Program-made: the position numbers and the translations under genes
Notes under the pieces: generated by a model
Seen by the model: the letters and a program-made list of their open reading frames with translations, nothing else
Told to the model about the DNA's origin: nothing
The model's database searches: none
DNA from: a virus
Taxonomy: Duplodnaviria > Heunggongvirae > Uroviricota > Caudoviricetes
DNA: 23,689 nt
IMG/VR virus record: IMGVR_UViG_2698536618_000024
Span: 1-23,689 of that record
Strand: one strand, 5' to 3'
In this document: one piece after another, positions 1,975 to 23,689 of the stretch
How the letters are laid out: each line of letters opens with the position of its first letter
Position numbering within the stretch: position 1 is the stretch's first letter

Positions 1975-1984
1975 TAGCAGGTAA

Positions 1985-2026: not shown

Positions 2027-2030
2027 ATTT

Positions 2031-2105: not shown

Positions 2106-2110
2106 AATAT

Positions 2111-2424: not shown

Positions 2425-2430
2425 TAGAGC

Positions 2431-4043: not shown

Positions 4044-4078
4044 ATTGCAGAGACCATTCAATGAGTGGTCTCTGCAAT
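4044..4078. repeat. 13-bp perfect inverted repeat with 9-bp spacer
   Basis: ATTGCAGAGACCA (4044-4056) / TGGTCTCTGCAAT (4066-4078), read directly; ~65 bp upstream of the ORF starting at 4142. Confidence 0.7.
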
Positions 4079-4141
4079 GGCTTATACCCTGCACGGGATA
4101 ACTTAACTGATATCCCTTTTAACGGATAAGCGGAGCCAACA

Positions 4142-4384: not shown

Positions 4385-4385
4385 T

Positions 4386-4565
4386 GTGAGCCGCGTAATC
4401 AATTTGGGTAAGGAGAAGAAATTCCCAATTACTCAAGAGCTATACGAGCGGCTGGAAAGCGTCATCCATGATTACGATGGTGAAATCAGTTTATGCGAGG
4501 CGATTGGCACACTTGAATTGCTGAAGCAGTCATTGATTGAAGGCGCGAAAGAGTCCTCAGCCTGA
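4386..4565 (+). CDS. Hypothetical small protein (59 aa, GTG start), translationally coupled to the upstream ORF
   Basis: Not in the supplied ORF track (below 60 aa). GGAG sits 6 nt upstream of GTG 4386; stop of the upstream ORF (4382-4384) is 1 nt before the start; translation VSRVINLGKEKKFPITQELYERLESVIHDYDGEISLCEAIGTLELLKQSLIEGAKESSA is protein-like. Confidence 0.35.
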   Translation: MSRVINLGKEKKFPITQELYERLESVIHDYDGEISLCEAIGTLELLKQSLIEGAKESSA

Positions 4566-4582
4566 AATGACAATTAAGTGAG

Positions 4583-5011
4583 ATGAATATGGCGACTGAA
4601 CCAAAAGCTGGTCGCCCCTCTGATTATATGCCGGAGGTGGCTGACGATATCTGCTCGTTGCTTTCTTCTGGCGAAAGTCTGCTGAAAGTATGTAAGCGTC
4701 CTGGTATGCCGGATAAGTCCACTGTTTTCCGCTGGTTGGCAAAGCATGAGGATTTTCGCGACAAGTACGCGAAGGCAACTGAGGCACGAGCTGATTCTAT
4801 TTTCGAAGAGATATTCGAAATTGCTGACAATGCGATTCCAGATGCTGCTGAGGTGGCAAAGGCAAGACTTCGCGTTGATACCCGCAAATGGGCGCTGGCC
4901 CGAATGAATCCCCGTAAGTATGGCGACAAGGTAACTAACGAGCTTGTCGGCAAAGACGGCGGCGCAATCCAGATTGAAACATCACCGATGAGCACTCTAT
5001 TCGGAAAATGA
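4583..5011 (+). CDS. Terminase small subunit
   Basis: 142 aa ORF immediately upstream of and overlapping (ATGA) the large terminase; N-terminal region looks HTH-like; family assignment by position and size only. Confidence 0.75.
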   Translation: MNMATEPKAGRPSDYMPEVADDICSLLSSGESLLKVCKRPGMPDKSTVFRWLAKHEDFRDKYAKATEARADSIFEEIFEIADNAIPDAAEVAKARLRVDTRKWALARMNPRKYGDKVTNELVGKDGGAIQIETSPMSTLFGK

Positions 5012-6423: not shown

Positions 6424-6424
6424 T

Positions 6425-8623: not shown

Positions 8624-8713
8624 TTAACCCATAACGTGCAATGGCTGTCTTTATGAGGCCTGGCACCCTATTGCCTTCCGATGGGCTGAACATCGAGTAA
8701 ACAGGGGTAACAA

Positions 8714-9607
8714 ATGGACCAGATGGCAGAAAACACACCAGAAGTTGAAATCGAAACCGACGCGTCAGAGCAGATTCCTGATGATGTCGAACTGGCTGAA
8801 GAAGTCGAAACAGAAGATGGCAGTGAGTCCTCCGGCAATAATGCAGAGGAAGCTACTGAAACTGATGACGACGAATCAGAACAGGAATTCTACTTTGGTG
8901 ACGAAAAGCTGGATTCGCCAACCAGCGAAGATGGCGCAGAGCATGGACTGGTAAAACACCTGCGCAAGACGATTAAAGAGAAAGACCGTGAGCTGAAAGA
9001 GCTGATGCGTCAGTCTCAGAAACCCGTCGAGCAGCAGCCGGTAATCACTCAACCACCGCGAATGCCAAAACTGGATGATGAGGACATCGGTTTCGATGAA
9101 GAAATCTACCAGCAACGCATGGCTAAGTGGGCAGAGGATAACGGCAAGTACCAGCAACAGGAGATGGCTCGCAAGCAGAAGGAGCAGGAGCTTCAGGCTG
9201 CCTATCAAGAGCGATTATCCAAATATCAGCAACGTGTTAAGGCTCTCAAAGTTCCTGGCTATCAGGAAGCTGAGCAAGCCGTACTCGAGGAAATCCCCAT
9301 CGAGACACAAAACGCGATCCTGTTTGAGTCAGAGAAGCCGGAAATCGTTGTTCTGGCACTCGGTCGCAACGCTGAACTGCGCAAGCAACTGGCAGAAGCT
9401 ACCAACCCCGTAGCAATTGGTCGTCTGCTGGAACGTATCGAATCGAAGGCCAGAATCATGCCAAAAGCAAAAACCACGGCAGCCACAACCCCGACAGTTA
9501 AGGGGAGCAACGGCGCAGTAATCAACAACCTCGGCAAATTGAAAGCCAAGGCGCTGGAAACTGGTGACTGGACGCCGTATTTCGCCGCTAAAAAGGCAAA
9601 AAAATAA
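8714..9607 (+). CDS. Scaffolding protein
   Basis: 297 aa, highly acidic N-terminus, charged helical body, basic C-terminus; between portal and coat as in P22 (gp8). Confidence 0.8.
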   Translation: MDQMAENTPEVEIETDASEQIPDDVELAEEVETEDGSESSGNNAEEATETDDDESEQEFYFGDEKLDSPTSEDGAEHGLVKHLRKTIKEKDRELKELMRQSQKPVEQQPVITQPPRMPKLDDEDIGFDEEIYQQRMAKWAEDNGKYQQQEMARKQKEQELQAAYQERLSKYQQRVKALKVPGYQEAEQAVLEEIPIETQNAILFESEKPEIVVLALGRNAELRKQLAEATNPVAIGRLLERIESKARIMPKAKTTAATTPTVKGSNGAVINNLGKLKAKALETGDWTPYFAAKKAKK

Positions 9608-9625
9608 CCTATCGGAGCATTAAGC

Positions 9626-10879
9626 ATGGCTAACCAATTAGCAAAAGACCTTGAAATCATGTTCGAAAACTACGTTGAAGGCTTTGAGGCCGCCTGCGTA
9701 GTTTCCCGTAACGCTAAAAAATTCCGTCCCGGTGATACAGCAATGCAGCGAGCAGGTGATGTTCTGTATCGTCCGCAGCATTACCACATGAACATTGAGG
9801 AAGGCCTAGACCTCAGCGGCAAAACGCCAACAGCACTGGTTCAGCGCCTTGTTCCTTCTGTGTTCAAGGAACCGAAAAACATTCTGTACACTCTGGATGC
9901 GCGTGAAATGCGTGACCCGGAACATAAAACTGAAGCTGGTCGAGCCGCAGGTATGCGCCTTGCTGCACAGATTGACTCTGACCTGATTTCCATGGTCACG
10001 CAGCGTGCTACTAACGTGGTCGCAATTCCTGCCTCAGAAAATGGCTCACGGGGCCTTGCCTTGTGGAATGGTGCGGCAGATATTGATGCCACCATGACGG
10101 CGATTGGTGTACCTCAGGGTATCAACCGTCGCTCTTTCTGGAACCCCTTCAACTACAAAGACCTTGCTGGCGAGCTTGGTCACCGTGCCTATGCTCAGGG
10201 CGCAACCCTGACAGCATACGAAAAAGCGCAGATCCCTCCGGTTGCGTCCTTTGATAGCTACAAGACCGATATTTCTGGTCGATTACCGAAAGGAAGCACT
10301 GAATCCTTGACAGTATCAGGCCAACCTGAACACAAGGTTGAAGCGAAAGATTCAAATGGTATGCCAGTTGATAACCGACAGGGGACTATTACGGTATCTG
10401 CATCTGGCTTGCAGGTTGGTGATGCGTTCACCATTGCCGGTGTGAATTCCGTACACCAGATCACAAAAGATACCACCGGTCAACCGCAGGTATTCCGTGT
10501 TCTGGCTGTTAGCGGAACTACCGTAACAATTTCTCCAAAGATTCTCCCTGTTGAAAATACTGATGTTGCGAGTCGTCCATATGCAAACGTCGATGCCAAA
10601 CCGGCAGAATCAGCAGCAATCACCATTCTCAACAAGAACGCAGCACCGGCTAACCTATTCTGGGCTGATGGTTCTGTTGAACTGATGTACGGCAAACTGG
10701 CATTCCCGACTGGTCAGGGGCCACAGGTAATGACAGCAACCACCGAGCAGGGCGCTACGCTGATCATGTCTTACGCCTTCGACCACATCAAAGGCGTAAC
10801 CACTGCACGTTTCACCACTCTGTACGGTTGCTCTGTACTGGTTCCTGAATATACGGGCATCGTTATTGCCGGGCAGTAA
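9626..10879 (+). CDS. Major capsid (coat) protein, P22-like/Sf6-type
   Basis: 417 aa following scaffold, GGAG RBS, followed by a strong terminator; size and position match P22 gp5; no close sequence match to P22 gp5 was recognised, the Sf6-type label is from context. Confidence 0.85.
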   Translation: MANQLAKDLEIMFENYVEGFEAACVVSRNAKKFRPGDTAMQRAGDVLYRPQHYHMNIEEGLDLSGKTPTALVQRLVPSVFKEPKNILYTLDAREMRDPEHKTEAGRAAGMRLAAQIDSDLISMVTQRATNVVAIPASENGSRGLALWNGAADIDATMTAIGVPQGINRRSFWNPFNYKDLAGELGHRAYAQGATLTAYEKAQIPPVASFDSYKTDISGRLPKGSTESLTVSGQPEHKVEAKDSNGMPVDNRQGTITVSASGLQVGDAFTIAGVNSVHQITKDTTGQPQVFRVLAVSGTTVTISPKILPVENTDVASRPYANVDAKPAESAAITILNKNAAPANLFWADGSVELMYGKLAFPTGQGPQVMTATTEQGATLIMSYAFDHIKGVTTARFTTLYGCSVLVPEYTGIVIAGQ

Positions 10880-10884
10880 TTTTG

Positions 10885-10910
10885 GTGGGGCTTCGGCCCC
10901 ATTTTTATTG
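10885..10910 (+). terminator. Rho-independent terminator after coat gene
   Basis: GGGGC-TTCG-GCCCC hairpin (10887-10900) followed by ATTTTTATT. Confidence 0.65.
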
Positions 10911-10920
10911 GGAGAAGACA

Positions 10921-11109
10921 ATGGCACGAACAATGCTCTATAAGCCTGGCAACATGATCACCTGTGGTCAGTTTGCTGTCGATTACATCATTGTTGATGA
11001 CGAAGAAGTTAAATCTCACCTGAAAAAAGGTTGGGTAAAAACTCCTGAAGAAACCGCAACGAAGCAAAAAGTGGCTAAGGCGGAAGAAGATGGCGAAAAC
11101 GAAGGGTGA
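10921..11109 (+). CDS. Hypothetical small protein (62 aa) between coat and gp4
   Basis: ATG 10921 preceded by GGGAGAAG; the ORF-track start at 10882 lies inside the terminator hairpin and is rejected; corresponds positionally to the small gene I recall between coat and gp4 homologues in Sf6-like phages. Confidence 0.45.
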   Translation: MARTMLYKPGNMITCGQFAVDYIIVDDEEVKSHLKKGWVKTPEETATKQKVAKAEEDGENEG

Positions 11110-11551
11110 TCTCGTTCTAAAGGCTTTACGAAAAGCCGGGCTGTATTCCAATGCCACGTTGACAGATGCTGACCCTCAGGCAATTGAAGATGCCATTAAT
11201 GACCTCGAAGACATGATGGCAGCATGGCAGGCGAAAGGTATCGAGCTTGGGTATCAGTTTGCTGATACAGAAAACGGCATCATGCCGTTACCTGACGATG
11301 ATTCAGGTATCCCTGCATGGGCAAATGATGGCGTCGCTTTGAAACTCGCTGTGCAAGTGTGCATGGATAACGTCATTCAGCCGTCAGACGCTCTCCTTAC
11401 CGCTGCTGACAGTGCATATCAAACAATCTGTATCGCTTTAACCAAAATACCACCACTTGAGCGGCGAAATGATATGCCTCGCGGTAGTGGTAACAAAAGC
11501 GCGTTTACGTGGAATCGGTTTTACATCGAGAAAGATGATCCGAGTACGTGA
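11090..11551 (+). CDS. Tail accessory / head-completion protein, P22 gp4-like
   Basis: N-terminus KTKGDLVLKALRKAGLYSNATLTDADPQAIEDAINDLEDMMAAWQ resembles recalled P22 gp4; position after coat. Confidence 0.85.
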   Translation: MAKTKGDLVLKALRKAGLYSNATLTDADPQAIEDAINDLEDMMAAWQAKGIELGYQFADTENGIMPLPDDDSGIPAWANDGVALKLAVQVCMDNVIQPSDALLTAADSAYQTICIALTKIPPLERRNDMPRGSGNKSAFTWNRFYIEKDDPST

Positions 11552-11560
11552 GGTGAATAA

Positions 11561-12979
11561 ATGCCGATTCAGCAACTTCCGCTCATGAAAGGTGTCGGCA
11601 AAGACTTTCGAAACGCCGACTATATCGACTATCTGCCAGTGAATATGTTGGCTACCCCCAAAGAAATCCTCAACAGCAGCGGATATCTTCGCTCATTCCC
11701 TGGCATTGCCAAACGTTCTGATGTGAACGGTGTATCGCGCGGCGTCGAGTACAACATGGCGCAGAATGCTGTTTATCGCGTGTGTGGTGGCAAGCTCTAC
11801 AAAGGGGAAAGTGAAGTCGGTGACGTCGCCGGAAGTGGTCGTGTATCAATGGCGCATGGTCGGACATCACAGGCGGTAGGCGTTAACGGGAAACTGGTCG
11901 AGTATCGCTATGATGGCACGGTTAAAACCGTCTCAAACTGGCCTGCAGACAGCGGATTCACTCAGTATGAGTTAGGCTCAGTCCGCGATATTACACGCTT
12001 ACGTGGGCGTTATGCGTGGTCAAAAGACGGCACTGATTCATGGTTCATCACTGACCTTGAAGACGAATCTCATCCTGACCGTTACAGCGCACAATATCGT
12101 GCCGAGTCTCAGCCTGACGGAATCATCGGCATCGGAACATGGCGAGACTTCATCGTCTGCTTTGGTTCATCGACGATTGAATATTTCTCCCTGACTGGTG
12201 CAACCACCGTTGGTGCTGCTCTGTATGTCGCACAGCCATCGCTGATGGTGCAGAAAGGCATTGCCGGGACTTACTGCAAAACGCCATTCGCTGATTCTTA
12301 TGCGTTCATCAGCAATCCGGCAACAGGTGCGCCGTCTGTATATATCATCGGCTCCGGTCAGGTATCACCAATCGCCAGCGCGAGCATTGAGAAAATACTA
12401 CGCTCCTACACTGCTGATGAACTGGCTGATGGCGTGATGGAATCGTTGCGGTTTGATGCTCATGAGTTGCTGATTATTCACCTGCCGCGCCATGTTCTTG
12501 TTTACGACGCATCTTCAAGCGCCAATGGTCCGCAATGGTGTGTGTTGAAAACAGGCCTGTATGACGATGTGTACCGCGCTATCGACTTCATTTACGAAGG
12601 CAATCAGATAACGTGCGGCGATAAGCTGGAGTCCGTGACCGGGAAATTGCAATTCGACATCAGCAGCCAGTACGACAAGCAACAGGAACACCTGCTGTTT
12701 ACTCCACTATTCAAAGCGGATAACGCCAGAGTGTTCGACCTTGAGGTTGAATCGTCAACTGGCGTTGCGCAGTATGCTGACCGCCTTTTTCTCTCTGCAA
12801 CCACTGACGGCATCAATTACGGGCGTGAGCAGATGATTGAGCAGAATGAACCGTTCGTTTACGACAAACGCGTTTTGTGGAAGCGAGTAGGGCGCATCAG
12901 GAAAAATGTCGGCTTCAAATTGCGCGTTATCACGAAGTCACCTGTCACTCTGTCTGGCTGCCAGATAAGGATTGAGTAA
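11561..12979 (+). CDS. Tail accessory protein, P22 gp10-like
   Basis: 472 aa; N-terminus [49 protein letters not shown] matches recalled P22 gp10. Confidence 0.9.
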
Positions 12980-13827
12980 TGGCGGATTCGAATCTCAATG
13001 TGCCGGTAATCATCCAGGCTACGCGGCTCGACACATCAGTCCTTCCACGCAATATCTTCTCGCAGTCATATCTGCTGTACGTTATCGCACAGGGTACTGA
13101 TGTTGGTAACGTGGCGAACAAGGCCAACGAGGCCGGACAGGGCGCTTATGACGCACAAGTCAGGAACGATGAGCAGGATGTGATTCTGGTCGATCACGAA
13201 ATTCGACTGGCATCAGCTGAAGCGAAGATTCAGGACCACGAAACAAGGATCACTAACGCAGAATCGGCGATAGTCGGCCTTGATTCCCGATTAACGACAG
13301 CAGAAAACGATATTGATTATCTGACTGATGAAGTTATCGCCATTCAAAACACGCTTTCAGACCATGAAACGCGCATTGATGCTCTGGAGTATGCCACTAC
13401 TCGCAAAAAGTCAGAGGTTGTTTACTCTGGCGTATCTGTAACCATCCCGACAGCGCCGACCAACCTTGTTAGCCTGCTGAAAACGCTCACGCCGTCATCC
13501 GGGACGTTGGCACCATTCTTCGACACTGTTAACAACAAGATGGTTGTGTTCAACGAGAACAAAACCTTGTTCTTCAAGCTGTCGATCGTCGGGACGTGGC
13601 CCAGCGGAACCGCCAACAGGTCAATGCAGCTAACCTTTTCCGGCTCTGTTCCTGACACGTTGGTCAGCAGTCGTAATGCGGCGACAACAACCGACAACAT
13701 CCTGTTAGCTACGTTCTTCAGCGTGGATAAAGACGGTTTTCTTGCCACAAATGGCAGTACGTTAACCATTCAGTCAAATGGTGCGGCGTTTACTGCCACA
13801 ACCATCAAGATAATCGCGGAGCAGTAA
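12979..13827 (+). CDS. Tail needle, P22 gp26-like, with extended C-terminal domain (Sf6-type knob)
   Basis: N-terminus [43 protein letters not shown] matches recalled gp26; 282 aa versus 233 aa recalled for P22; C-terminal ~130 aa Ser/Thr/Asn-rich and not coiled-coil-like. Confidence 0.85.
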
Positions 13828-14282
13828 TGATTCAGTTCAAACCAACGCGAAACATCGACCTGATCGAAGCAGTCGGAAATCACCCTGACATTATTGCCGG
13901 GAGCAACAACGGTGATGGATACGATTACAAGCCTGAATGCCGTTACTTTGAGGTGAACGTGCACGGTCAGTTTGGCGGCATTGTTTACTATCAGGAGATT
14001 CAGCCGCTGACATTCGATTGCCACGCCATGTACCTGCCAGAGATTCGCGGCTTCAGCAAGGAAATCGGGCTGTCGTTCTGGAGATACATTCTGACTAACA
14101 CCACCGTTCAGTGCGTCACATCGTTCGCTGCACGCAAATTCCGTCACGGGCAGATGTACTGCGCAATGATTGGCCTTAAGCGTGTAGGAACCATCAAGAA
14201 ATACTTCAAAGGCGTGGATGACGTGACATTTTACAGTGCTACACGCGAAGAACTAATCGACTTCCTGAATCACGGGAGATAG
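13827..14282 (+). CDS. P22 gp14-like protein
   Basis: 151 aa ORF in the gp14 position between tail needle and ejection proteins, coupled by overlapping TAATG. Confidence 0.7.
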   Translation: MIQFKPTRNIDLIEAVGNHPDIIAGSNNGDGYDYKPECRYFEVNVHGQFGGIVYYQEIQPLTFDCHAMYLPEIRGFSKEIGLSFWRYILTNTTVQCVTSFAARKFRHGQMYCAMIGLKRVGTIKKYFKGVDDVTFYSATREELIDFLNHGR

Positions 14283-14284
14283 CC

Positions 14285-14977
14285 ATGTTATATGCATTTA
14301 AGCTGGGCAGAAAACTGCGCGGCGAGGAACCTTATTGCCCTGAAAAAGGCGGGAAAGGTGGCAGCTCTGATAAAAGCGCAAAGTATGCAGCAGAAGCTCA
14401 GAAGTATGCCGCAGACCTGCAAAATCAGCAGTTCAACACCATCATGAATAACCTGAAGCCGTTTACTCCTCTGGCTGATAAGTATGTCGGCAGCCTCGAA
14501 AACTTATCGTCTCTGGAGGGGCAAGGTCAGGCACTTAACCAGTATTACAACTCTCAGCAGTATAAAGACCTTGCAGGTCAGGCTCGCTATCAGAGTCTGG
14601 CGGCAGCGGAAGCAACAGGTGGATTGGGTTCCACCGCAACCAGTAATCAGTTAGCAACAATCGCACCAACGCTTGGTCAGCAATGGCTATCTGGACAAAT
14701 GAACAATTACAACAACCTGGCAAATATCGGTCTTGGCGCTCTTCAGGGGCAGGCAAACGCCGGGCAAACATATGCCAACAACATGAGTCAGATTTCACAG
14801 CAAAGCGCGGCGCTGGCTGCGGCAAACGCCAACCGACCGTCAGCATTGCAGCAGGGGGTTAGTGGTGCTGCATCCGGTGCGCTTTTGGGTGGTGGCATAG
14901 CCAGTGCTCTCGAGCTATCAACTCCGTGGGGTGCTGGTATTGGTGCTGGTCTTGGTCTGCTTGGTTCACTGTTTTAA
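14285..14977 (+). CDS. Ejection (internal virion) protein, P22 gp7-like
   Basis: 230 aa; MLYAFKLGRKLRGEEPYCPEKGGKGGSS...QKYAADLQNQQFNTIMNNLKPFTPLADKY and Gly-rich C-terminus match recalled P22 gp7. Confidence 0.9.
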   Translation: MLYAFKLGRKLRGEEPYCPEKGGKGGSSDKSAKYAAEAQKYAADLQNQQFNTIMNNLKPFTPLADKYVGSLENLSSLEGQGQALNQYYNSQQYKDLAGQARYQSLAAAEATGGLGSTATSNQLATIAPTLGQQWLSGQMNNYNNLANIGLGALQGQANAGQTYANNMSQISQQSAALAAANANRPSALQQGVSGAASGALLGGGIASALELSTPWGAGIGAGLGLLGSLF

Positions 14978-14987
14978 GGGTTAATCA

Positions 14988-16403
14988 ATGGCTACGTGGC
15001 AACAGGGTATTAATTCTGGTGGGTTTCTTGCTGGCATCGGTGCGCAAAATGAGAATGCGCCAAAGGCAAGCGACATTAACGCAACGCTTGGTCTGATCCG
15101 CGAAAACAATGAACTGGCTCGATCAGGCGCAAATAACGTTGGTCTGACCGCGTTACGTGGTCTGGCTGGAGTTGCTGATATTTATAAGCAGGAACAGCAA
15201 CAGAAAGCTATTAGTGCGTTCAATAAGGTTCACGCTGATGCATGGGCTTCTGGTGATCCATCGGGACTATTTAAGTTTGCCCAGGAAAATCCAGCGTTTG
15301 TTGCACAGGCACAACAGGCGTTTTCCGGTCTTAATGAGCAGCAACGCAACGATATGGGCGATTTAGCCATGAGGGCTAACGTCGCTCTTTCTCAGGGACC
15401 GGAAGCCTACAGTAAATTCATTACTGACAACAAGGACAGGTTAAATCGTGTGGGTGCGAATGCTGACTGGATGATTCAGACAGGTATTCAGAATCCAGAG
15501 CAGCTATCACACATGCTGACTACTATGTCTCTCGGTGCGCTTGGACCAGAAAAGGCGTTTGCTGTTCAGGATAAGATGGCTGGTCGTGAAATTGACCGAG
15601 GCAGGCTGGCAGAGACAATCCGCAGCAATCAGGCTGGCGAGGCACTTCAGGCGAGAGGGCAAAACCTTTCCTATCAGTCAGCAATGACTGGGCACAATAT
15701 CGCAGCACAACGCTTGGCTCTGGATCAGCAAGAGTTCGGGTTTAAGATGCAGCAAGCGCAGGAAAAGGCTCAGCAGTTGATTAGCGAAGCACCTAAGCTG
15801 TCAGTAAACATGGAAAAAGGCATCGAGACGGCTGTAAACAATGCCACAGCATCATCAAACTCAGCCAATTCTATGAGTGCACTTGCTCAACAGTTCAGAG
15901 CAGAAAAACCAACGACAGGTTTGTTCGGTAACGCACAGAACATGTTCGCAAAACTTACCGGAAGCGATACGACATTGCGTGATTTGCGCATTCGCCAAAA
16001 TGCCCTTGTTAACAGTCAGGTTCTTAAATTCCTACCTCCCGGCCCAGCAACGGATAAAGACGTTGAGATCGTTCGACAGGGTGCGCCAACTGACATGGAT
16101 AACCCTGAGACGGTCGCAAGATGGCTTGATGCAATGGCAAACCTTGAGCGACGAAACGCGCAGTTTAATGAGTTTAAAGCCGAGTGGATGAGCGCGAATG
16201 GCAACCCTGGACAATCGCGTAATGGCGGTCAGATATTGGGGTTGGATGTTAAAAAAGGTGAATCATTGGGGAGTGCCGTTAAGCGGTATATGTCAATGAA
16301 TACTGACGCAGCGCCAGCACAAGATTCGACACCTTCAGGTGAACCACGGAATCAGGTTGGATCATATACCTCAAAATCAGGCATTCAATTTACGGTGGAA
16401 TGA
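14988..16403 (+). CDS. Ejection protein, P22 gp20-like
   Basis: 471 aa, [19 protein letters not shown]-terminus, same size and position as P22 gp20. Confidence 0.9.
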
Positions 16404-18241
16404 TGAAAGTAACTGCAAACGGTAAGACATTTACCTTTCCTGATGGTACGAGCACCGAAGATATTGGAACCGCCATTGATGAGTATTTTGCTGGTCAGGC
16501 TGTTCAGCAACAAACAGTTAATCAGGACAATAATGCACCAACACGGGAAGAACCATCATTGATGCAACAAGCTGGCGATTGGATCACTGGTGGTCAAAGT
16601 GCAGGGCAAATTGCAGAACAGGCTGGTCGTGGTCTGGTAAACATACCATTTGACGTATTGCAGGGTGGCGCAAGTCTGATTAATGCAATCAGTCAGGGGC
16701 TTGGTGGGCCAAAAGTTTTGGATGATGTTTATCGTCCAGTAGACAAACCGACAGACCCATACGCACAAGCCGGTGAAACAATTGGTGGGTATTTAGTTCC
16801 AGGAGTTGGAACGGCAGGAAGCATGGCTATTGGCTCACTGGCAGAGGCCGCAAATCAGAAAGGCGATTTCGCACAAAATGCAGCTAAAAATGCCGGAGTT
16901 AACCTTGCCGCTCAGGGTGTTCTTTCCGCAGCAGCAAAGGGAATAGGGCGTGGAATAACGGCTATAAAAGGTGATATTGCGCCAGAAGTGGCGAAGAAAA
17001 TTGCCACATCAGAATCGATGGGCGTGACACCAATGACATCTGATGTTATCCCGCCGAAAAATGCTTTCACTCGCGGCCTTACTCAGGATGCCGAGGGGGC
17101 TTTGCTCGGGACGGGCTCAAAGCGAGCAGAGCAATATGCAACGCGTAGTAAGCTGGTAAGCAATTATTTTGACCGTTTTGGTGAGTACAACCCTGATGAT
17201 GTGGTGAAATCTCTGACCACCACGTTAAGGGGGCGGAAGGATGCTGCTGGCGCTGTTATCAATGACGTCACCAATAAAATGGGTAATGCCGCAGTTGATA
17301 CCACAAATACCATGAATGCTCTGAATACAGCGATCGCAAGACAGGAACGACTTGGGACGTCTGCCAATCAAAGCCTGCTTACATCCTTGCGTAACCTGCG
17401 TGAAGAATTAGCAAACCCTGCAACTGATTTGGATGTTACGTTTGATCTCTTGCGTCAGCACAGAACAGCATTTAGATCTAATGTTCAGGGAGATGCTATG
17501 GTCTTCCCCAACCAGGCAAAAGCAGCTACCAATATGGTAGAGAATGCAATGTCAAAAGACCTTCGTAACGCAGTTGCTAAAAACCTCGGTGCATCAGACG
17601 CAGCAAAATACCTTAAAGCAAATTCCGATTATGCAAACGTTTATAATAAGGTGCTTAATAAAAACATTGCCAACAAGCTCAACAAGGCAAGCAGTGAAGC
17701 CAGTCCTGAACTTATAAATACCGTTGTATTAAGCAGAAAACCATCTGACGTGAAACGAATCTGGAGCGCATTGGATGATAAAGGGAAAGATGCTATGCGT
17801 GCAGCTTACGTCAGCAAAATAGCGGAAAAGGCCGGTGACTCTCCAGCCAAGTTCATCACTGAAGTTAATAAGCTGAAATCTCAGTCAGGCGGTGAAATTT
17901 ACAACACTATTTTTTCTGGAAAGCACATGAAAGAGCTTGATGCTCTTCATGAAGTTCTACAGCAAACAGCAAGGTCAGACACCGCAAATGTAGTAACTCA
18001 GACGGGGCAATCGCAAGCCAACAGGATAAGGACGATTGGCGCAACTGCGACTCTTGGTGTATCAATGGGGCTTGAGGCTGGTTTCGGTGCAATCATGCGC
18101 TTGTATGAGTCCAAAGCAGCAAGGAATGCTCTCTTACGTTTGGCAAACACCAAAGCAGGAACACCAGCCTATGAAAGAGCGCTAAATAATGCTGCAAATG
18201 CCGTCAGGCCGCTGTTTGCTACTGAGGCAACACAGCAGTAA
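16400..18241 (+). CDS. Ejection protein, P22 gp16-like
   Basis: 613 aa; N-terminus [32 protein letters not shown] matches recalled P22 gp16. Confidence 0.9.
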
Positions 18242-18265
18242 CGTATGGGAAATTGGATTCAATCG

Positions 18266-18655
18266 CTAACATTTTCTTTTTACTTTCCCAACAAAAGCTT
18301 TGGTTGAATCCATATTTCCATAACCGGAAATGGTTTTTGACATTAAAACTGTTCCAGTAGGATGTATTACCCATGAGTCGATAACGCGTTGAGTTTCGCC
18401 ATTCGCGCCGATTCCTATGATGGAGTTTTTAGACAATGCTTTGTAAGCCATGCCGCCCGCATCTGTCCCAGAATATGTGATGCTGGCATCTTCACCGCTT
18501 GTCTTAATGATGAATGTTCCACTAAAACCATCTTCTTCCGGATGGAAATTATTTCGTTCTGAATAGCTTATTCCGCGCATATCTCCAACGACCCAGCACT
18601 CTGCTGTAGCCCCAAAAGATATGAATAAGAACATAGCAGCAAGAAATTGCTTCAC
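18266..18655 (-). CDS. Hypothetical secreted/periplasmic protein (about 129 aa with Sec signal peptide)
   Basis: Start reassigned to GTG at 18655 (minus strand): AAGGAGG lies 5 nt upstream and the product begins MKQFLAAMFLFISFGATA/ECW, a classic n-h-c signal peptide with AXA site; the ORF-track extension to 18871 is antisense to the neighbouring plus gene and not protein-like. Confidence 0.55.
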   Translation of the reverse strand: MKQFLAAMFLFISFGATAECWVVGDMRGISYSERNNFHPEEDGFSGTFIIKTSGEDASITYSGTDAGGMAYKALSKNSIIGIGANGETQRVIDSWVIHPTGTVLMSKTISGYGNMDSTKAFVGKVKRKC

Positions 18656-18685
18656 ACCAACCTCCTTAGTTTTGCGCAGGATACC

Positions 18686-19051
18686 ATGAAAAAAGTTAAC
18701 ATTGGAAACGTACCAAAAATGCTCGTTCCGCTCTTTGAGAGCGGTACAATTGTGTTTTGCAGAGACTTTCCAGAATGGCAACGCCTGCATCAAAAACTTG
18801 GCGTGGACGTGCAGGACTCGGATGCCAACGGAGCGTCTCATACAATGAGCAGCGAGAATGGTGTTTTGCATGTGATAGGTGTGTTCAATGGCAAACTATC
18901 TACTATTGCCCATGAGTGCGCTCACATGGCATTCGATATCTGCTCAAGGGTCGGCGTTGATGTTGAACCAGGAAGAGCCAACGAGACTTACTGCTACTTA
19001 ATGAGCAGGCTTGTTGAGTTCTGCGAGCGACATATCAAAAAGCCGGAGTGA
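18686..19051 (+). CDS. Hypothetical protein with HEXXH zinc-binding-type motif (about 121 aa)
   Basis: Translation contains STIAHECAHMAFD (HEXXH at nt 18910-18924) in a hydrophobic context typical of zincin active-site helices; start at ATG 18686 to avoid overlap with the divergent secreted-protein gene; family not identified. Confidence 0.5.
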   Translation: MKKVNIGNVPKMLVPLFESGTIVFCRDFPEWQRLHQKLGVDVQDSDANGASHTMSSENGVLHVIGVFNGKLSTIAHECAHMAFDICSRVGVDVEPGRANETYCYLMSRLVEFCERHIKKPE

Positions 19052-19058
19052 ACCGGCT
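19036..19058 (-). terminator. Intrinsic terminator for the minus-strand small gene, overlapping the 3' end of the HEXXH gene
   Basis: AGCCGG-AGTGAA-CCGGCT hairpin (19041-19058); the A-run 19036-19040 on the plus strand gives a U-run after the stem on the minus strand. Confidence 0.4.
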
Positions 19059-19064
19059 TGATTA

Positions 19065-19244
19065 TTACTTTTTGCTGTCTGGAGTTCGCTTATCTAATAC
19101 CCAGCCATGACCTGGCTTTGTTGTTGGTGGAAGTCTTTCGTTGTCCTTGACGGTGGCAAAATTATCTTTCTTACCGCCGCGTGGGCCAACTTCTTGGTAT
19201 ATTCCGCCGTTTTTTCCTGTGTTTTCACCTGGTTTTTTCGCCAT
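19065..19244 (-). CDS. Hypothetical small protein (59 aa), Gly/Lys/Pro-rich
   Basis: MAKKPGENTGKNGGIYQEVGPRGGKKDNFATVKDNERLPPTTKPGHGWVLDKRTPDSKK; GAGG RBS 7 nt upstream of ATG 19244; own terminator downstream; pattern loosely resembles small YjzC-like proteins as I recall them (unverified). Confidence 0.5.
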   Translation of the reverse strand: MAKKPGENTGKNGGIYQEVGPRGGKKDNFATVKDNERLPPTTKPGHGWVLDKRTPDSKK

Positions 19245-19335
19245 GATATACCTCAACATACACCCGTTATTGGGCGATTAAATATTGATCTCATTTTATA
19301 AGTAGTCAATATGGCCCAGGTAAATGCAAAAATTA

Positions 19336-19358
19336 ACCCACCGTCAGGTGGTTTTTTT
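19336..19358 (+). terminator. Rho-independent terminator (first of two in tandem upstream of tailspike)
   Basis: CCACC-GTCA-GGTGG (19338-19351) followed by TTTTTTT 19352-19358. Confidence 0.5.
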
Positions 19359-19409
19359 GTACAAATCCTTCAGCCAGTACATAACTACTGACAGATAACC
19401 AACGCAACG

Positions 19410-19433
19410 ACCCAGCTTCGGCTGGGTTTTTTT
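19410..19433 (+). terminator. Rho-independent terminator (second of tandem pair)
   Basis: ACCCAGC-TTCG-GCTGGGT (19410-19427), 7-bp stem with tetraloop, then TTTTTT 19428-19433. Confidence 0.6.
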
Positions 19434-19491
19434 ATGCCCAAAATTCACCGTGGCCACGCTGCGGCGATTCATTGTATCTGGAGCAAATTAA

Positions 19492-21288
19492 ATGACAGAC
19501 ATTACAGCCAATGTGATCGTATCGATGCCTTCGCAACTTTTCACTATGGCGCGTTCTTTTAAAGCTGTAGCCAATGGCAAAATTTATATCGGTCAGGTTG
19601 ACACTGACCCGGTAAATCCTGAAAACCAGATCCCTGTATATCTGGAACGAGAAGATGGCTCTCATGTTCAGGTGGCGCAGCCAATAGTTATCAACGCTGC
19701 TGGATATCCGGTATATAACGGGCAGATCGCCAAGTTCGCAACTGTACAGAATCACTCCATGGCTGTATATGATGCGTATGGCGCACAACAATTCTATTAT
19801 CCTGATCTACTGAAATATTCTCCAGACCAGTTAAGGGCTGAGCTTTCTGGCCCTGATGGCGCATCTCTGGTTGGTTATGGAGGCACAACCGTAAAGATTG
19901 AGCTGGAGATCTTGAAAGCTACACATGATTCATTAATTGATAAAACAGGATTTAACGCTATTGGCCGCTTTCTCAATCTTTCAGAGCTTCGCTCCTGTGT
20001 TCCAGAGGAGGCAGGGCAGATTGTATACGTAGCATCAGCAGCTAGCACTACACATGCTGAAAACCACCTTGGTGGCGGCTTTTTCGAGTCTGTTGATAAC
20101 ATTCAGGCGTGGGCTGACGATGGTGGAATTGTAATCAAGCCAGAAACTGGAACGATGGTATGGAGACGAATTAATTTTACCACTTACGACATGCAATTTT
20201 GGGGGGTGAAACCTGACGGAGTCACAGATAACGCAACAGCTATAACTCTTGCAACTAACTTTGCCCGCTCAAACAAATGCATTCTAGAGGCTCCTGCTGG
20301 AAACATAAATACATCAAAAACAATCCCAATTTATGACAATATGGGAATTAGAGGACAGGGAAAGGCTGAAGCGACAGTTTTTTATAAAACAACAAATGAC
20401 AAAATAGATCTCACAAAAAATGGAGAAGTAATTCTTCAGGTGGATGCATTATGTGCTTTTATACCAAAGCAATGGGATCTAACAGATAACTCAATGAGTT
20501 CATTTTGTGTTAACGGTAGAGTTGAAAACTGCATGTTTAGAAGGCTTGGCTTAACACAAGAAAACGTAGATTCTTATAGAAATTATTACGGACTGTTTTT
20601 AGGAAAATCAGCAGCACCAGTTATCAGACAGTCAATTTTTGAATGTGCTTATATCGGATGCTTCTCTTATGTGCCGTTCTCTGGCGTAATGGAAATGGTC
20701 GGTTTCCCACAATATCCAGGTAAAGGATATGCTGGAGTTTTATTTGAAGATTTTAGGGATGGTCAAATAAAAGTAATAGGCACTTCTATGGATATGCGCC
20801 TTGTTCAGGTTAACGGTTACCAGTTGTCATTTAGAATGTCAGGAATGCAATATACCACCATGACCAATTGTACTGCTGAAAACTGCACGCCAATGGATGG
20901 GGAGTCAATTTGCTATGCATTTGATTTTGTAAATCCGTATTGCATTGTCATGAATACTTGTGCAACAGAATTTGTTAAGGGTGGGCAACTTCGTGTTAGC
21001 GTTCAGGGAAACCCATCATTCAGACCATCTATTATTGTCAATGGCTTTCTGCCAATTGAACAACAAAGCCCGGTAGTGCAAACACCTATAATAGATATTG
21101 ATAATGGTGGCGTAGTTGAAATGAGTGTCATATTAAATGGTGGAGATTGGGCTATAAATCCATCTGCTGCAAATTTAACCGCACCAAGAGCAAGCGGAAA
21201 TGGGTTGAAAGCAAGGTTAATAGGTGTAAACGGGTCGCCTGTTTCGATCTGGAGCGTGTCTTCTGGCGCAGATGTGAAGGAGTTCTAA
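19492..21288 (+). CDS. Tailspike protein: conserved P22-type N-terminal head-binding domain plus divergent receptor-binding domain
   Basis: First ~115 aa ([11 protein letters not shown]...[58 protein letters not shown]) match the recalled P22 gp9 N-terminal domain; remainder unlike P22 and markedly lower in GC by eye. Confidence 0.9.
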
Positions 21289-21326
21289 CAATAGAAACAT
21301 TGACATAGCTAATGTGTTAATCTAAC

Positions 21327-21354
21327 CTGCCGGGAAATTCAACCATTCCGGCAG
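21327..21354 (+). promoter_or_regulatory. Inverted repeat in the leader of the acyltransferase gene
   Basis: CTGCCGG (21327-21333) / CCGGCAG (21348-21354), 7-bp perfect inverted repeat with 14-nt spacer, ending 4 nt before ATG 21359. Confidence 0.3.
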
Positions 21355-21358
21355 AGTT

Positions 21359-22468
21359 ATGAATAATAAAGGCAATATAATTCAAAGTCTTACATCGTTG
21401 AGAATGTTTGCAGCCCTTGGTGTTTTCGTTAGTCACCTTGGGTTATTATCTCAATCATCTATTGGCATGTTTAATACTGCGGCAAAGTATTTTTTTAACG
21501 GTTACATAGGTGTAACGTTTTTCTACATTCTTTCAGGTTTCATTATAAACTATAGCTTCACAAATCATATAAAAAAAGAGAGATTTAGCAATAAAGATTT
21601 TATTGTATACAGGATTGCAAGAATATTCCCTGTGCATATAGTGGCGCTTATTTGTTTTATTTTAATATTTATGCATGGTAAGGGTATTGATGGTATTAAT
21701 AATGGAGTGCTTATTTCAAATATATTATTACTACAATCATTTATTCCATTACAGGATTATTACTTTTCCTTTAATTCCGTTTCATGGAGCATCTCATGTG
21801 AGATGTTTTTCTACGTTGCATTTTGCTTATTAACAAGGCTAAAGACAAAGCATTTAACTTGTGTGCTGTTATTTGTGCTTGCGATTAATTTTTATTATTT
21901 AATTAATCCACCATCAGCTATATCACAGCATTGGTTGTTTTATATAAATCCATCATTTAGAATTGGCGATTTCATTATAGGAATGCTGATCTGTAGGGTG
22001 TTTATTAATAGTGATGTAAAAATCAACTATACTGTTTGCAGTATACTTGAGATCGCATCGGTGTTGTCATTGTTTTTGACAATATATGTAGCAACAAACT
22101 ATATCACATATATGAACATAAAATATGATGTTCTATATATCCCTTGCATGGCGTTTATAGTTATTGCATTTGCTTTTAATGGTGGCGTCTTATCTAAGAT
22201 ACTTAAAAATAGATTTATGGTTTTGCTTGGTGAGGCCTCTTTCTCATTTTACATTTTCCATTGGATGATAATACAGGTAATAACTAAGATATTAAACCCT
22301 GACACTGATAATTTGTATGAGATGTTAATGTATATAGCATTTTCTTTATTGGTTTCTATTATTGTATCAATAATCTCATTCAAGGTTATAGAAGTGCCTT
22401 CAAATAAAATAATAAGAGGTTATTGGAGAAAGTTTAGAGGTGATAAATTAACTGCGAAGTGTAGTTAG
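21359..22468 (+). CDS. Integral-membrane acyltransferase family 3 protein; candidate O-antigen acetyltransferase (Oac-like serotype-conversion gene)
   Basis: 369 aa, hydrophobic multi-pass throughout, N-terminal region SLRMFAALGVFVSHLG typical of acyltransferase-3 proteins, strongly AT-rich; sits between tailspike and int, the position I recall for oac in Sf6 and gtrABC in P22. Confidence 0.75.
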   Translation: MNNKGNIIQSLTSLRMFAALGVFVSHLGLLSQSSIGMFNTAAKYFFNGYIGVTFFYILSGFIINYSFTNHIKKERFSNKDFIVYRIARIFPVHIVALICFILIFMHGKGIDGINNGVLISNILLLQSFIPLQDYYFSFNSVSWSISCEMFFYVAFCLLTRLKTKHLTCVLLFVLAINFYYLINPPSAISQHWLFYINPSFRIGDFIIGMLICRVFINSDVKINYTVCSILEIASVLSLFLTIYVATNYITYMNIKYDVLYIPCMAFIVIAFAFNGGVLSKILKNRFMVLLGEASFSFYIFHWMIIQVITKILNPDTDNLYEMLMYIAFSLLVSIIVSIISFKVIEVPSNKIIRGYWRKFRGDKLTAKCS

Positions 22469-22516: not shown

Positions 22517-22550
22517 TGATGAAAAGGTGGATCACTCCACCTTTTCATCA
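22517..22550. repeat. 15-bp perfect palindrome overlapping the integrase stop codon
   Basis: TGATGAAAAGGTGGA (22517-22531) - TCAC - TCCACCTTTTCATCA (22536-22550); the int stop (TGA on minus, 22532-22534) lies in the loop. Confidence 0.7.
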
Positions 22551-23689
22551 AGCCAATCCGCCCACCACTGCATCATTTCTCTGCGCTTATCGAGATACTG
22601 AGCATGGTTGTAAATTCCGCGCACAGATCCGCCGTTGGCATGTGCCAGTTGCACTTCAATAGCGTCGGCAGGCCATTCGTGCTCGTTCATAATCGTGCTG
22701 AATTCATGTCTGAATCCGTGACCGCTTTCCAGACCCTCATAGCCGATTTGTTTGATCACAAGCAATACCGCGTTCTCGCAGATTGGCTTCTTCTTATCGT
22801 TGCGCCCGGCAAAAACAAACTCTGATACTTGTTTAGTGATTGAGCTTAGTGTAGTGAGAAGTTCAACCACCTGGTCTGACATCGGGACCACATGAATTTT
22901 GCGTCCCTTCATCACATTGGCGTCAATGGTGATAATCCTGTTTTCAAAATCGACGTTCTTCCATTGCATGGAACGAAGCTCTTTCGTTCTTAGGGCTGTA
23001 TAGCGTAAAACCTTGGTGGCAATGAGCGATACGATACTTCCTGAAAATGTTGCCAGTGCTTTGTTGAATGCCGGGATCTGGTCTGCAGGTAAAAACGGGA
23101 AGTTCTTCTTGCGGTATCCCTTCATGGCGTCAGCAAGGTCAGGTGCCGGGTTATATTTAGCCCTTCCTGTGACAATAGCGTAACGAAAAACCTCGCCGCA
23201 TCTTCTGCGGGCTTTATTGGCTCGTTCCATTGCACCGCGATCTTCAAATCTGCGGATTACTTCCAGCAGTTGCATCGGCTCTATATCCTGAATCTCAAGA
23301 CCGCCGATGATGGGCAAAATGTCGTCATCAAACATTTTGGCAAGTTCAGTTGCATAGCCTACTGACCAGACTTGCTTCTTGTGCTCGTACCATTCCTTGT
23401 AAATGGCGCTAAAGGAATTGTTGTTAGACGAAGCCTTTTTCGCTTTTACCGGATCGATGCCAACCGAGATGTCTTTCCTCGCGGTCCATGCTTTATCTCT
23501 TGCCTCCTGCAAAGTCATTAGCGGATATTTTCCGACGGTCAGGATTTTCTCCTTACCGTCAATCTTGTAGCGAAGCTGCCATACCTTTTTCCCTGATACA
23601 GGGACATAAAGGTACAGGCCATTACCATCGAGTAGGCGGTATGGTTTTTCTTTCGGCTTAGCTGCTTCAATCTGCTTAACGGTGAGCAT
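22532..23689 (-). CDS. int: Tyrosine integrase (P4-type arm-binding N-terminus)
   Basis: 385 aa; N-terminus MLTVKQIEAAKPKEKPYRLLDGNGLYLYV typical of P4-family integrases; C-terminal HGFRHEF and GIYNHAQY boxes fit the tyrosine recombinase H-x-x-R...Y motifs; start codon is the last 3 nt of the window, so a longer N-terminus cannot be excluded. Confidence 0.9.
   Translation of the reverse strand: MLTVKQIEAAKPKEKPYRLLDGNGLYLYVPVSGKKVWQLRYKIDGKEKILTVGKYPLMTLQEARDKAWTARKDISVGIDPVKAKKASSNNNSFSAIYKEWYEHKKQVWSVGYATELAKMFDDDILPIIGGLEIQDIEPMQLLEVIRRFEDRGAMERANKARRRCGEVFRYAIVTGRAKYNPAPDLADAMKGYRKKNFPFLPADQIPAFNKALATFSGSIVSLIATKVLRYTALRTKELRSMQWKNVDFENRIITIDANVMKGRKIHVVPMSDQVVELLTTLSSITKQVSEFVFAGRNDKKKPICENAVLLVIKQIGYEGLESGHGFRHEFSTIMNEHEWPADAIEVQLAHANGGSVRGIYNHAQYLDKRREMMQWWADWLDEKVE

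Follow-up and report, generated by a model that had tools for sequence, protein, structure and literature searches.

Why does a P22-like prophage carry a membrane acyltransferase gene directly behind its tailspike gene, and on which bacterial surface polysaccharide would the two proteins act? The question is raised by a stretch of 23,689 nucleotides (nt) from IMG/VR record IMGVR_UViG_2698536618_000024, hereafter called the window, which comes from a P22-like (Lederbergvirus) Escherichia coli prophage and to which all coordinates refer. A preliminary description of this stretch had proposed a horizontally acquired, co-evolving pair of genes for receptor recognition and O-antigen modification. 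Our analysis makes it likely that the region provides O103-specific adsorption together with lysogenic O-acetylation of the O103 O-antigen, by which superinfection would be blocked. The genes and domains on which this reading is built are the following (ORF, open reading frame; aa, amino acids; loci from our searches are designated by L and a number).

19492-21288, plus strand: tailspike gene, 598 aa (ORF call)
19492-19845, plus strand: head-binding (virion anchor) domain of P22/Sf6 type, part of the Lederbergvirus backbone (codons 1-118)
19846-19935, plus strand: neck or linker from the anchor to the beta-helix (codons 119-148)
19936-21288, plus strand: receptor-binding domain (RBD), a predicted right-handed beta-helix of the 'O103' receptor-binding protein (RBP) subtype (codons 149-598)
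21359-22468, plus strand: AT3-only membrane acyltransferase, 369 aa, starting 70 nt past the tailspike gene (ORF call); predicted O-antigen O-acetyltransferase and lysogenic conversion gene (PF01757, PHROG 3333)
22532-23689, minus strand: tyrosine integrase (int), 385 aa, convergent with the acyltransferase gene (ORF call); IntS-type, Sf6/HK620 group, the backbone gene that bounds the module (Pfam Phage_integrase, Phage_int_M, Arm-DNA-bind_3)

A chimeric tailspike and an acyltransferase of foreign composition

The tailspike keeps a P22-type head-binding N-terminus, as had been described, and the remainder is a foreign RBD. Residues 1-113 matched Pfam Head_binding (PF09008), a profile of 113 positions, with E 1.3e-62, and a phmmer search of the Protein Data Bank (PDB) matched residues 1-118 to Sf6 gp14 (7sg7, E 7e-58) and residues 2-117 to the P22 tailspike. 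Neither match extends past residue 117-118. The linker that follows is common to other P22-like tailspikes with the same RBD and not to phage TL-2011b; it showed 95-100% identity to the P22-like loci L010 and L014 and about 50% to TL-2011b.

This phage, a Uetakevirus whose recorded host is the E. coli O103:H25 outbreak strain NIPH-11060424/NVH-734, has the same block in another setting. A megablast search against phage genomes aligned positions 19937-22444 with one stretch of TL-2011b at 90.2% nt identity. This stretch takes in the last 450 codons of gp48, a protein of 697 aa, the space between the two genes, and gp49, an 'O-acetyltransferase' in the RefSeq annotation. The tailspike N-terminus and both flanks of TL-2011b are unrelated to the window, which left of 19937 matches the P22-like phages HZ41, Louie and Dewey and right of about 22524 matches the int genes of Sf6, HK620 and CUS-3 at 95-97% nt identity. 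The identity profile against TL-2011b rose from about 50% in the linker to 98-100% beyond about 19940-19990 (19990-20700) and was 76-85% in 21150-21288. Since the block is common to TL-2011b while its N-terminus and flanks differ, the tailspike and acyltransferase pair moves between phage genera: the RBD and the acyltransferase were exchanged between Uetakevirus and Lederbergvirus, with the left junction in the neck between anchor and beta-helix.

The base composition of the module is foreign as well. The backbone (1-19491) has a GC content of 0.490 and the head-binding part of the tailspike 0.449, whereas tailspike codons 119-598 fall to 0.412, with a GC content at third codon positions (GC3) of 0.32; within the tailspike gene GC is lowest at 20200-20800. 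The value of 0.412 (z = -4.2 against backbone windows) lies under all backbone windows of equal length, the lowest of which is 0.437. The acyltransferase gene, expected to be still more AT-rich, has GC 0.300 and GC3 0.295 (z = -9.3), and the integrase gene returns to GC 0.475 and GC3 0.53. Long backbone ORFs have GC3 values of 0.38-0.58, a range that omits the minus-strand ORF 7679-8560 (GC3 0.645), which is nested in the 6425-8623 gene. Because GC3 falls as well, the low GC of the module is not just a matter of hydrophobic or amino-acid content. The computed GC is thus not uniform across the tailspike gene and drops in two steps, and the onset of visible AT-richness, placed at roughly codon 130, is near the mark: similarity to P22 and Sf6 stops at about codon 118 and similarity to TL-2011b starts at about codon 150 (nt 19937). 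Horizontal acquisition of the pair is upheld on both counts, with two compositionally foreign genes that have been exchanged jointly between the Uetakevirus TL-2011b and this Lederbergvirus. The O103 O-antigen cluster of E. coli, with GC 0.33 overall and 0.29 in wzy, is similar to the module in composition.

Homologues of tailspike residues 119-598 are numerous in Enterobacterales, where they occur behind at least three anchors (PF09008, Tail_spike_N PF18668 and the 697-aa Uetakevirus type) and all bear the precomputed family PF27114 'Phage_tail_beta'. At the amino-acid level the RBD is 94% identical over 100% to TL-2011b gp48 and 51% identical over 96% to the tailspike of phage PAS7. An AlphaFold (AF2) model of the RBD built from 48 sequences reached a predicted local distance difference test score (pLDDT) of 91, and all top matches of a Foldseek search with this model against the PDB were phage tailspike depolymerases with a right-handed beta-helix. 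The best match was Belisarius gp86 (24qi, E 9.5e-16, TM 0.67); the others included AS12 gp42, Depo32, K2-2 TSP and CBA120 TSP2, with 6eu4, 7vz3, 8iq9 and 5w6p as PDB entries. Two clusters of acidic residues have been predicted in silico in the PAS7 tailspike (PMC11522302). PAS7 E177, E268, E347 and E377, which belong to these predicted residues, align with E293, E384, E463 and E493 of the window tailspike, and the latter are invariant or nearly so in 48 homologues; PAS7 E348 corresponds to N464, and TL-2011b is also without that Glu. The ratio of nonsynonymous to synonymous substitution rates (dN/dS) of the RBD against its relatives was 0.16-0.19. The model points to an RBD that is most likely an O-antigen depolymerase with a predicted glycosidase activity. 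An esterase tailspike of the G7C type was considered and rejected, the fold of the RBD being that of a beta-helix depolymerase. No NCBIfam model matched the tailspike, and a profile search of genome contigs with the RBD alignment gave two loci only. More was gained from scans of viral and metagenome sequences and from look-ups of contigs. A 714-aa protein from a Logan contig (P0066), 80% identical to the RBD over 84%, carries PF01757 and PF27114 in one chain; this apparent tailspike-acyltransferase fusion is possibly a frameshift or assembly artefact.

The assignment of the second gene to the AT3 membrane acyltransferases, in the conversion-gene slot of the order tailspike, acyltransferase, int, was confirmed. 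Pfam Acyl_transf_3 (PF01757) matched residues 9-337 at 91.8 bits against a cut-off of 31, covering profile positions 2-325 of 326, and PHROGs assigned the protein to phrog_3333, 'O-acetyltransferase' (E 9e-81). This is its single Pfam domain, and no SGNH domain is fused to it. A hydropathy scan gave multiple transmembrane segments and the AF2 model was all-helical, with about 10 long helices (pLDDT 86.8). The functional motifs described for AT3 proteins are R/K-X10-H in the first transmembrane helix, an FFxISG-type motif, RXXR and an invariant Gly (PMC7448272, PMC8952252), with H25, F41, G46, R69/R72 and G202 as their counterparts in OafA (PMC7448272). The window protein has R15-X10-H26, F54-F55-Y-I-L-S59-G60, R85-I-A-R88 and G208, and these motifs were invariant in 49-50 aligned homologues including Sf6 Oac; E345 is a further invariant residue. 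Purifying selection acts on the gene: dN/dS was 0.17 in the comparison with the TL-2011b allele and 0.07 in that with the L014 allele. Among 50,697 phage records TL-2011b alone held a close relative (82% aa identity to gp49), all others being below 36%. The PDB gave no match at E <= 1 in a sequence search and nothing below E 0.33 in a Foldseek search with the AF2 model, and no solved AT3 structure was found. By its sequence the protein belongs to an AT3 lineage, PHROG 3333, that is separate from the Sf6 Oac, OacB and OafA groups, although it would act as those enzymes do. It is not an orthologue of Sf6 Oac, and the two genes lie on different strands.

The O103 O-antigen as the probable target

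The 'O103' RBP subtype of Pas et al. (2023), which asks for 30% identity or more to a subtype member across 60% or more of the RBD, together with a host of the serogroup, includes TL-2011b, Ro103C3lw and PAS7 (PMC10408124, PMC11522302). The window RBD falls into this subtype by its identities to TL-2011b and PAS7 and by its O103 hosts, apart from one clone pair of hosts without O103. TL-2011b itself is reported to infect O103:H25 and none of the non-O103 commensals assayed (PMC4315091).

A prophage 99.5% identical to the window is present in strain 19KM2326N (NZ_CP151038.1). The O-antigen cluster of this strain was found via its distance to argW, and PGAP labels the wzx and wzy genes there, and likewise those of GPEC349-628, 'O103 family'. 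The offset from argW missed the O-antigen locus in two further hosts, whose genomes are rearranged, and the O103 wzx-wzy segment was then searched against all 5426 complete E. coli genomes. The cluster was detected in 32 of them, a background of 0.6%, and in 8 of the 10 complete genomes with any match to the module. These were four of six hosts of the full module (19KM2326N, Z1323CEC0019, GPEC349-628 and GPEC1176), both hosts of a diverged cassette (33-6 and 58-3) and both hosts of an RBD variant, that is, a tailspike matching just the first 405 nt of the query (S56 and APEC20/16). With a background of only 0.6% the association of module and O103 cannot be chance. The specificity had been called unknown from the sequence; homology and host genotype together point to the O103 O-antigen of E. 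coli, and we infer from both that the receptor is O103 polysaccharide. In the O103 cluster of 19KM2326N (L202, NZ_CP151038.1, 5733-6613) a family-2 glycosyltransferase gene is split into ORFs of 540 nt and 171 nt, the same gene being intact at 987 nt in GPEC349-628 (L205, 5128-6114); the split may mean a defective or altered O-antigen in the 19KM2326N lysogen.

On this basis the region would be that end of a P22-like E. coli O103 prophage which encodes host recognition and serotype conversion. The P22-type head-binding domain would anchor the chimeric tailspike to the virion, and its beta-helix RBD would bind the O103 O-polysaccharide and most likely cleave it via the acidic residues, bringing the phage to the outer membrane. 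A lysogen would express the AT3-only inner-membrane acyltransferase from its own conserved sigma-70 promoter. The enzyme is expected to move acetyl from a cytoplasmic donor over the membrane and to O-acetylate the O103 repeat unit in the periplasm; we infer the reaction, and with it the position modified on the sugar, by analogy with Sf6 Oac and PhiV10 Oac. The modified O-antigen should be a poor substrate for the window tailspike and for related O103 tailspikes. The lysogen would then be guarded against superinfection, and released virions would be spared adsorption to lysogens and debris. The genes form a low-GC cassette that is exchanged among phage genera by recombination where the anchor meets the RBD. 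Exclusion by O-acetylation has precedents in Sf6 Oac, PhiV10 Oac and BTP1 OafB (PMC9558356, PMC11854483).

Candidate expression signals, slot and exchange of the cassette

Four elements around the acyltransferase gene may bear on its expression and inheritance.

21150-21288, plus strand: last ~45 tailspike codons, travelling with the acyltransferase allele and not with the RBD body (nucleotide identity profile)
21300-21328, plus strand: candidate sigma-70 promoter of the acyltransferase gene, with -35 TTGACA at 21300-21305, a 17-nt spacer and -10 TAACCT at 21323-21328
21327-21354, plus strand: conserved inverted repeat CTGCCGG(GAA)-loop-(TT)CCGGCAG, overlapping the -10 and ending 4 nt ahead of the ATG
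22517-22550, no strand assigned: perfect palindrome TGATGAAAAGGTGGA-TCAC-TCCACCTTTTCATCA with 15-bp arms, spanning the int stop codon (read from the sequence)

Across 14 cassettes with protein identities down to about 50%, TTGAC and T-A-n-n-C-T were invariant and the 17-nt spacer was variable. The promoter element was present without an upstream tailspike in L113, L196, L200 and L206-L208. Both it and the inverted repeat were absent from L209, in which the acyltransferase gene is internal to a chromosomal O-antigen operon. We read the element as a putative lysogenic promoter of the acyltransferase gene, independent of the late operon. Promoter-like matches of a generic scan inside the acyltransferase gene were at chance (14 against 14.9 expected).

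The RNA of 21286-21375 folded at -24 kcal/mol (z = -4.2 against shuffles), and in the aligned inverted repeats 82.5% of cells paired in register against 22-57% in slid registers. Covariation was not above shuffles (82.5% paired against 82.2%, reached by 243 of 500 shuffles), because the outer stem is conserved in sequence. It is possible that the repeat forms an RNA hairpin over the ribosome-binding region or that it serves as an operator in the DNA. Were transcription to begin about 7 nt past the -10, the mRNA of the promoter itself would be without the 5' arm and the hairpin would form just in read-through late transcripts, where it would limit acyltransferase translation to the lysogenic state. 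Phase variation of the Dam/OxyR type, as in the P22 gtr operon, was dropped as a candidate, the intergenic element having no conserved GATC. Downstream, the palindrome at 22517-22550 is likely, from its sequence, to stop transcription of both the acyltransferase gene and int as a bidirectional terminator; the HK620 annotation places a terminator of the excision transcript immediately past int. A generic terminator scan did not list this palindrome.

The acyltransferase gene occupies the slot in which P22 carries gtrABC and Sf6 carries oac, as the preliminary description had it, with a difference in strand. The gene order is gene 9, gtrCBA, attP, int in P22 and tailspike, oac, int in Sf6, with the conversion genes of both on the opposite strand; the window gene is co-directional with the tailspike, like that of TL-2011b. 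Our survey of the slot covered viral contigs with an RBD homologue and sufficient downstream sequence, and in these the slot was always occupied by a known or predicted O-antigen modifier. A close relative of the acyltransferase gene lay 70-120 nt behind the tailspike gene, on its strand, in L004, L005/L021, L007, L010, L011, L014, L012/13/16/24, L023 and L025, and a distant AT3 gene was found in L019 and L027. Opposite-strand gtrCBA genes filled the slot in L017 and L022 (by Pfam) and in L018, L028 and L031 (by ORF similarity). No gtr ORFs (GtrA, GtrB, GtrC) lie between tailspike and int in the window. The O103 strain APEC20/16 (L213, NZ_CP127297.1, 5620-11473) has a P22-like prophage at argW with a 598-aa tailspike, gtrCBA and intS; its tailspike has only the first ~400 nt after the anchor in common with the window RBD. 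Since this prophage has gtrCBA and not the acyltransferase gene, O103 prophages use alternative modifiers. In 19KM2326N (NZ_CP151038.1) the tailspike-acyltransferase-intS layout lies beside tRNA-Arg (argW) and yfdC. The attP core lies upstream of int in HK620 and Sf6, and here attP lies past the int 5' end, outside the window; the argW/yfdC layout agrees with this position, so that the gene arrangement in the window is what the right end of such a prophage normally looks like.

The two genes have long been inherited together, and they are nevertheless separable. Diverged cassettes keep the pairing, with RBDs 54-73% and acyltransferases 50-60% identical to those of the window. In nine cassettes the pairwise identities of the C-terminal half of the RBD and of the acyltransferase were correlated (Spearman 0.81 over 36 non-independent pairs), which argues for long co-inheritance. 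Against the window, TL-2011b is 94% identical in the RBD and 82% in the acyltransferase, with synonymous divergence (dS) of 0.25 and 0.65. L010, L011 and L014 are 96-97% identical in the RBD and 64.8% in the acyltransferase, with dS of 0.12 and a saturated 3.7. The nucleotide identity of L010 and L014 to the window was 98-100% up to about 21150 and then fell sharply to about 70% through the end of the gene and the acyltransferase gene, which places a recombination breakpoint at about 21150 within the tailspike gene. The proposal of a co-evolving pair thus stands in part: divergence is correlated, but a near-identical RBD is also joined to an acyltransferase lineage of 65% identity. Both lineages, that of the window and TL-2011b and that of L014, were found in O103 hosts.

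Further loci illustrate the same separation. In L032/L054 (IMGVR_UViG_2841640639_000004; L032, 6001-8447) a P22-like tailspike with an RBD only 38% identical to that of the window precedes a residual C-terminal piece of the window RBD family, 112 codons long (71%), and then the acyltransferase gene (68%), as if the RBD had been replaced and the old tip and acyltransferase had stayed behind. E. coli 33-6 (L215, NZ_CP050031.1, 3196-9480) and 58-3 carry a remnant at argW with torI, a 147-aa C-terminal tailspike fragment, the acyltransferase gene, gtrCBA and intS. The acyltransferase of these remnants is intact and of L014 type, and the locus looks like a domesticated island with two O-antigen modifiers. 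In L197-L199, from E. coli and Escherichia spp. (e.g. CP188181.1, 957-4110), the tailspike gene, of Tail_spike_N type and with an RBD of this family, has been fragmented into 3-4 short ORFs, and the downstream acyltransferase, 60% identical to that of the window, is intact. The tailspike C-terminal tip, the intergenic element and the acyltransferase gene behave as a sub-cassette that is exchanged separately. It is conceivable, and we advance it tentatively, that the acyltransferase is a separately mobile 'immunity cartridge' (tip, promoter, inverted repeat and acyltransferase gene) swapped in an arms race among O103 phages, with the hairpin limiting its translation to lysogeny. The two acyltransferase lineages might then acetylate different O103 positions and exclude different competing O103 phages.

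To the left of the module the window holds the following features; the three small ORFs (18266-19259) separate the gene of the DNA-transfer protein (16400-18241, phrog_770) from the tailspike gene, a position at which P22 has mnt-arc-ant.

18266-18871, minus strand: small ORF, phrog_2651 (unknown-function PHROG)
18647-19051, plus strand: small ORF, phrog_1365 (unknown-function PHROG)
19065-19259, minus strand: small ORF, phrog_3202 (unknown-function PHROG), weakly YjzC-like
19338-19351 and 19409-19428: terminator-like hairpins ahead of the tailspike start

Alternative explanations, known systems and significance

Several observations weigh against O103 adsorption coupled to lysogenic exclusion. 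E. coli WP8-S18-CRE-02 and GSH8M-2 hold the module without the O103 wzx-wzy cluster; their records are equal in length and we have taken them as one clone. The locus there (L214, NZ_AP022245.1; GSH8M-2 identical) is a remnant riddled with the insertion sequences IS1, ISSen4 and IS3 that lies beside pao genes and not at argW, its tailspike gene split by IS3, its int truncated and its acyltransferase ORF intact. Sf6 Oac matches the acyltransferase at 34% over 82 N-terminal residues only, the best characterised phage matches, the D3 and g341c enzymes, are about 24% identical, and no NCBIfam model matched the protein. The literature searched contained no paper on O103 O-acetylation by a prophage, and the block that acetylation would pose to this tailspike is argued by analogy. 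The predicted -10 of the promoter is weak, with a match of 3/6, for which reason the generic scan did not list the promoter. Finally, one RBD occurs with two acyltransferase lineages that are 65% identical, so that tailspike and modification need not be strictly matched in function.

An explanation that is compatible with exclusion, and that we judge unlikely as the chief one, makes the acyltransferase gene mainly a moron of benefit to the host through altered antigenicity, serum or immune evasion, or protection from unrelated O103 phages. A conserved promoter belongs to the gene itself and makes no use of phage late transcription, the gene is intact in decayed prophages (33-6, 58-3, WP8-S18-CRE-02 and the L197 loci), and stand-alone copies occur in Aeromonas and Franconibacter. 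However, intact phages of two genera have it right after a tailspike of the same specificity group, in the same layout as the proven exclusion systems of Sf6 and PhiV10, and phage resistance as the host benefit predicts its retention in remnants equally well.

A substrate among the other envelope glycans (enterobacterial common antigen, colanic acid, capsule or peptidoglycan), with the adjacency to the tailspike incidental, is distinctly improbable. AT3 proteins acylate many substrates (PMC9558356), the substrate is not readable from an AT3-only sequence with no close characterised relative, and two host genomes are without the O103 cluster. The relatives of the protein nevertheless speak for O-antigen. 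A 50%-identical homologue in Enterobacter pseudoroggenkampii (L209, JAPMLV010000001.1, 2501-3589) sits within a chromosomal O-antigen cluster of the order EpsG/wzy-like, GT4, GT2, acyltransferase, gnd, ugd, that is, between glycosyltransferases and gnd. Homologues of 55-61% in Hafnia, Franconibacter and Cedecea adjoin the O-antigen glucosylation genes gtrA/gtrB/gtrC, the Cedecea copy also following a myovirus tail fibre, and a 62% homologue in Cronobacter comes after a Uetakevirus-type tailspike. The gtrABC genes also fill the slot in sister cassettes. The peptidoglycan O-acetyltransferases described in the sources consulted are AT3-SGNH fusions, such as OatA (PMC7448272), whereas the window protein is AT3-only. 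The check on a peptidoglycan link gave relatives in prophage conversion loci near tailspikes or gtr genes and one in an O-antigen cluster, and none of the genomic contexts examined was peptidoglycan-related.

It is scarcely credible that the acyltransferase makes the receptor, so that the tailspike would need O-acetylated O103 or act on it as a G7C-like esterase. Among E. coli phages there are examples of esterase tailspikes and of adsorption that depends on acetyl groups (G7C, as cited in PMC8065619), and the C-terminal tip of the tailspike co-segregates with the acyltransferase allele. The RBD model is nevertheless a beta-helix depolymerase with conserved Asp/Glu clusters and not an SGNH esterase. 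The lytic phage PAS7, with a homologous RBD, plaques on an O103 strain, and TL-2011b is the sole phage record with a close acyltransferase homologue. One RBD occurs with different acyltransferase lineages and a related RBD with gtrABC, and a lysogen producing its own receptor would lose released virions to adsorption. Low GC as a mere by-product of protein composition (a hydrophobic membrane protein and a beta-helix), with no acquired module, could appeal to the abundance of Phe, Ile, Leu and Asn, which have AT-rich codons, in AT3 proteins, but is refuted by the GC3 values (0.295 and 0.32 against 0.38-0.58 in long backbone ORFs), by the block at 90% nt identity in a phage of another genus with unrelated flanks and by the fit of the module to the composition of the O103 cluster (0.33; wzy 0.29).

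O103 adsorption with lysogenic O-acetylation has counterparts in several known phages, of which TL-2011b is the closest. It has the same gene order and strand and the same ~70-nt intergenic promoter and inverted repeat; it differs in its 697-aa Uetakevirus tailspike with another N-terminal anchor, in having holin/lysis genes and not int after the cassette, and in an acyltransferase that is more diverged than the RBD (dS 0.65 against 0.25). Among the matches listed, the only Escherichia phages named for the acyltransferase were two TL-2011b records. Sf6 has the Lederbergvirus backbone (head-binding domain 79% identical, int 96% identical in DNA) and likewise an AT3-only O-antigen acetylase between its tailspike, the endorhamnosidase gp14, and int, and acetylation hinders its tailspike and gives superinfection immunity (PMC9558356). 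Unlike the window gene, oac runs on the opposite strand, from a promoter of its own at the int side. Oac has 333 aa and is 34% identical over the first 82 residues only, the RBD is unrelated in sequence, with the Sf6 tailspike as a weak fold match (E about 1e-5), and the substrate is the rhamnose backbone of S. flexneri and not O103. PhiV10 (Uetakevirus), by its published description, pairs an O-antigen-recognising tailspike with a phage AT3 protein, whose acetylation of the O-antigen keeps the phage from infecting again (Perry et al. 2009, as cited in PMC10408124 and PMC9558356; also PMC11854483), but its target is O157. P22 shares the head-binding domain family and likewise uses the slot between tailspike and attP/int for O-antigen conversion, with glucosylation by three opposite-strand genes in place of a single co-directional acetyltransferase. 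PAS7 (vB_EcoP_PAS7) has the homologous beta-helix RBD with its predicted acidic active-site residues conserved, but is virulent, has another anchor and was not among the matches listed to the acyltransferase. It plaques on O103 strain 4215/4 and gives clearing zones only on the O103:H25 strain NVH-848 and on P11-2315 (PMC11522302, Table 1).

The system as such is already known, in that TL-2011b gp49 bears the annotation O-acetyltransferase and RefSeq contains near-identical prophages; the gene pair of the window is probably an ordinary, as yet uncharacterised, example of phage serotype conversion. In the literature searched we found no O103 acetylation chemistry, no Uetakevirus-Lederbergvirus block transfer mapped to nucleotide breakpoints, no separate mobility of the acyltransferase gene with a tailspike tip and no invariant promoter and inverted-repeat element.

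The finding holds little conceptual surprise and is of practical use for phage and tailspike applications against Shiga-toxin-producing E. coli of serogroup O103, one of the main non-O157 serogroups of that pathotype. O103-specific tailspikes are in development for detection, tailocin retargeting and phage cocktails, and about a quarter of the complete O103 genomes (8/32) carry a prophage or remnant with this RBD family beside an O-antigen-modifying locus. If the acyltransferase acetylates O103, this could, speculatively, explain the plaque-less clearing by PAS7 on two of three O103 strains, including O103:H25. Lysogens could then resist O103 phages and tailspike-based reagents, and they could evade some typing sera yet type as O103 by wzx/wzy PCR.

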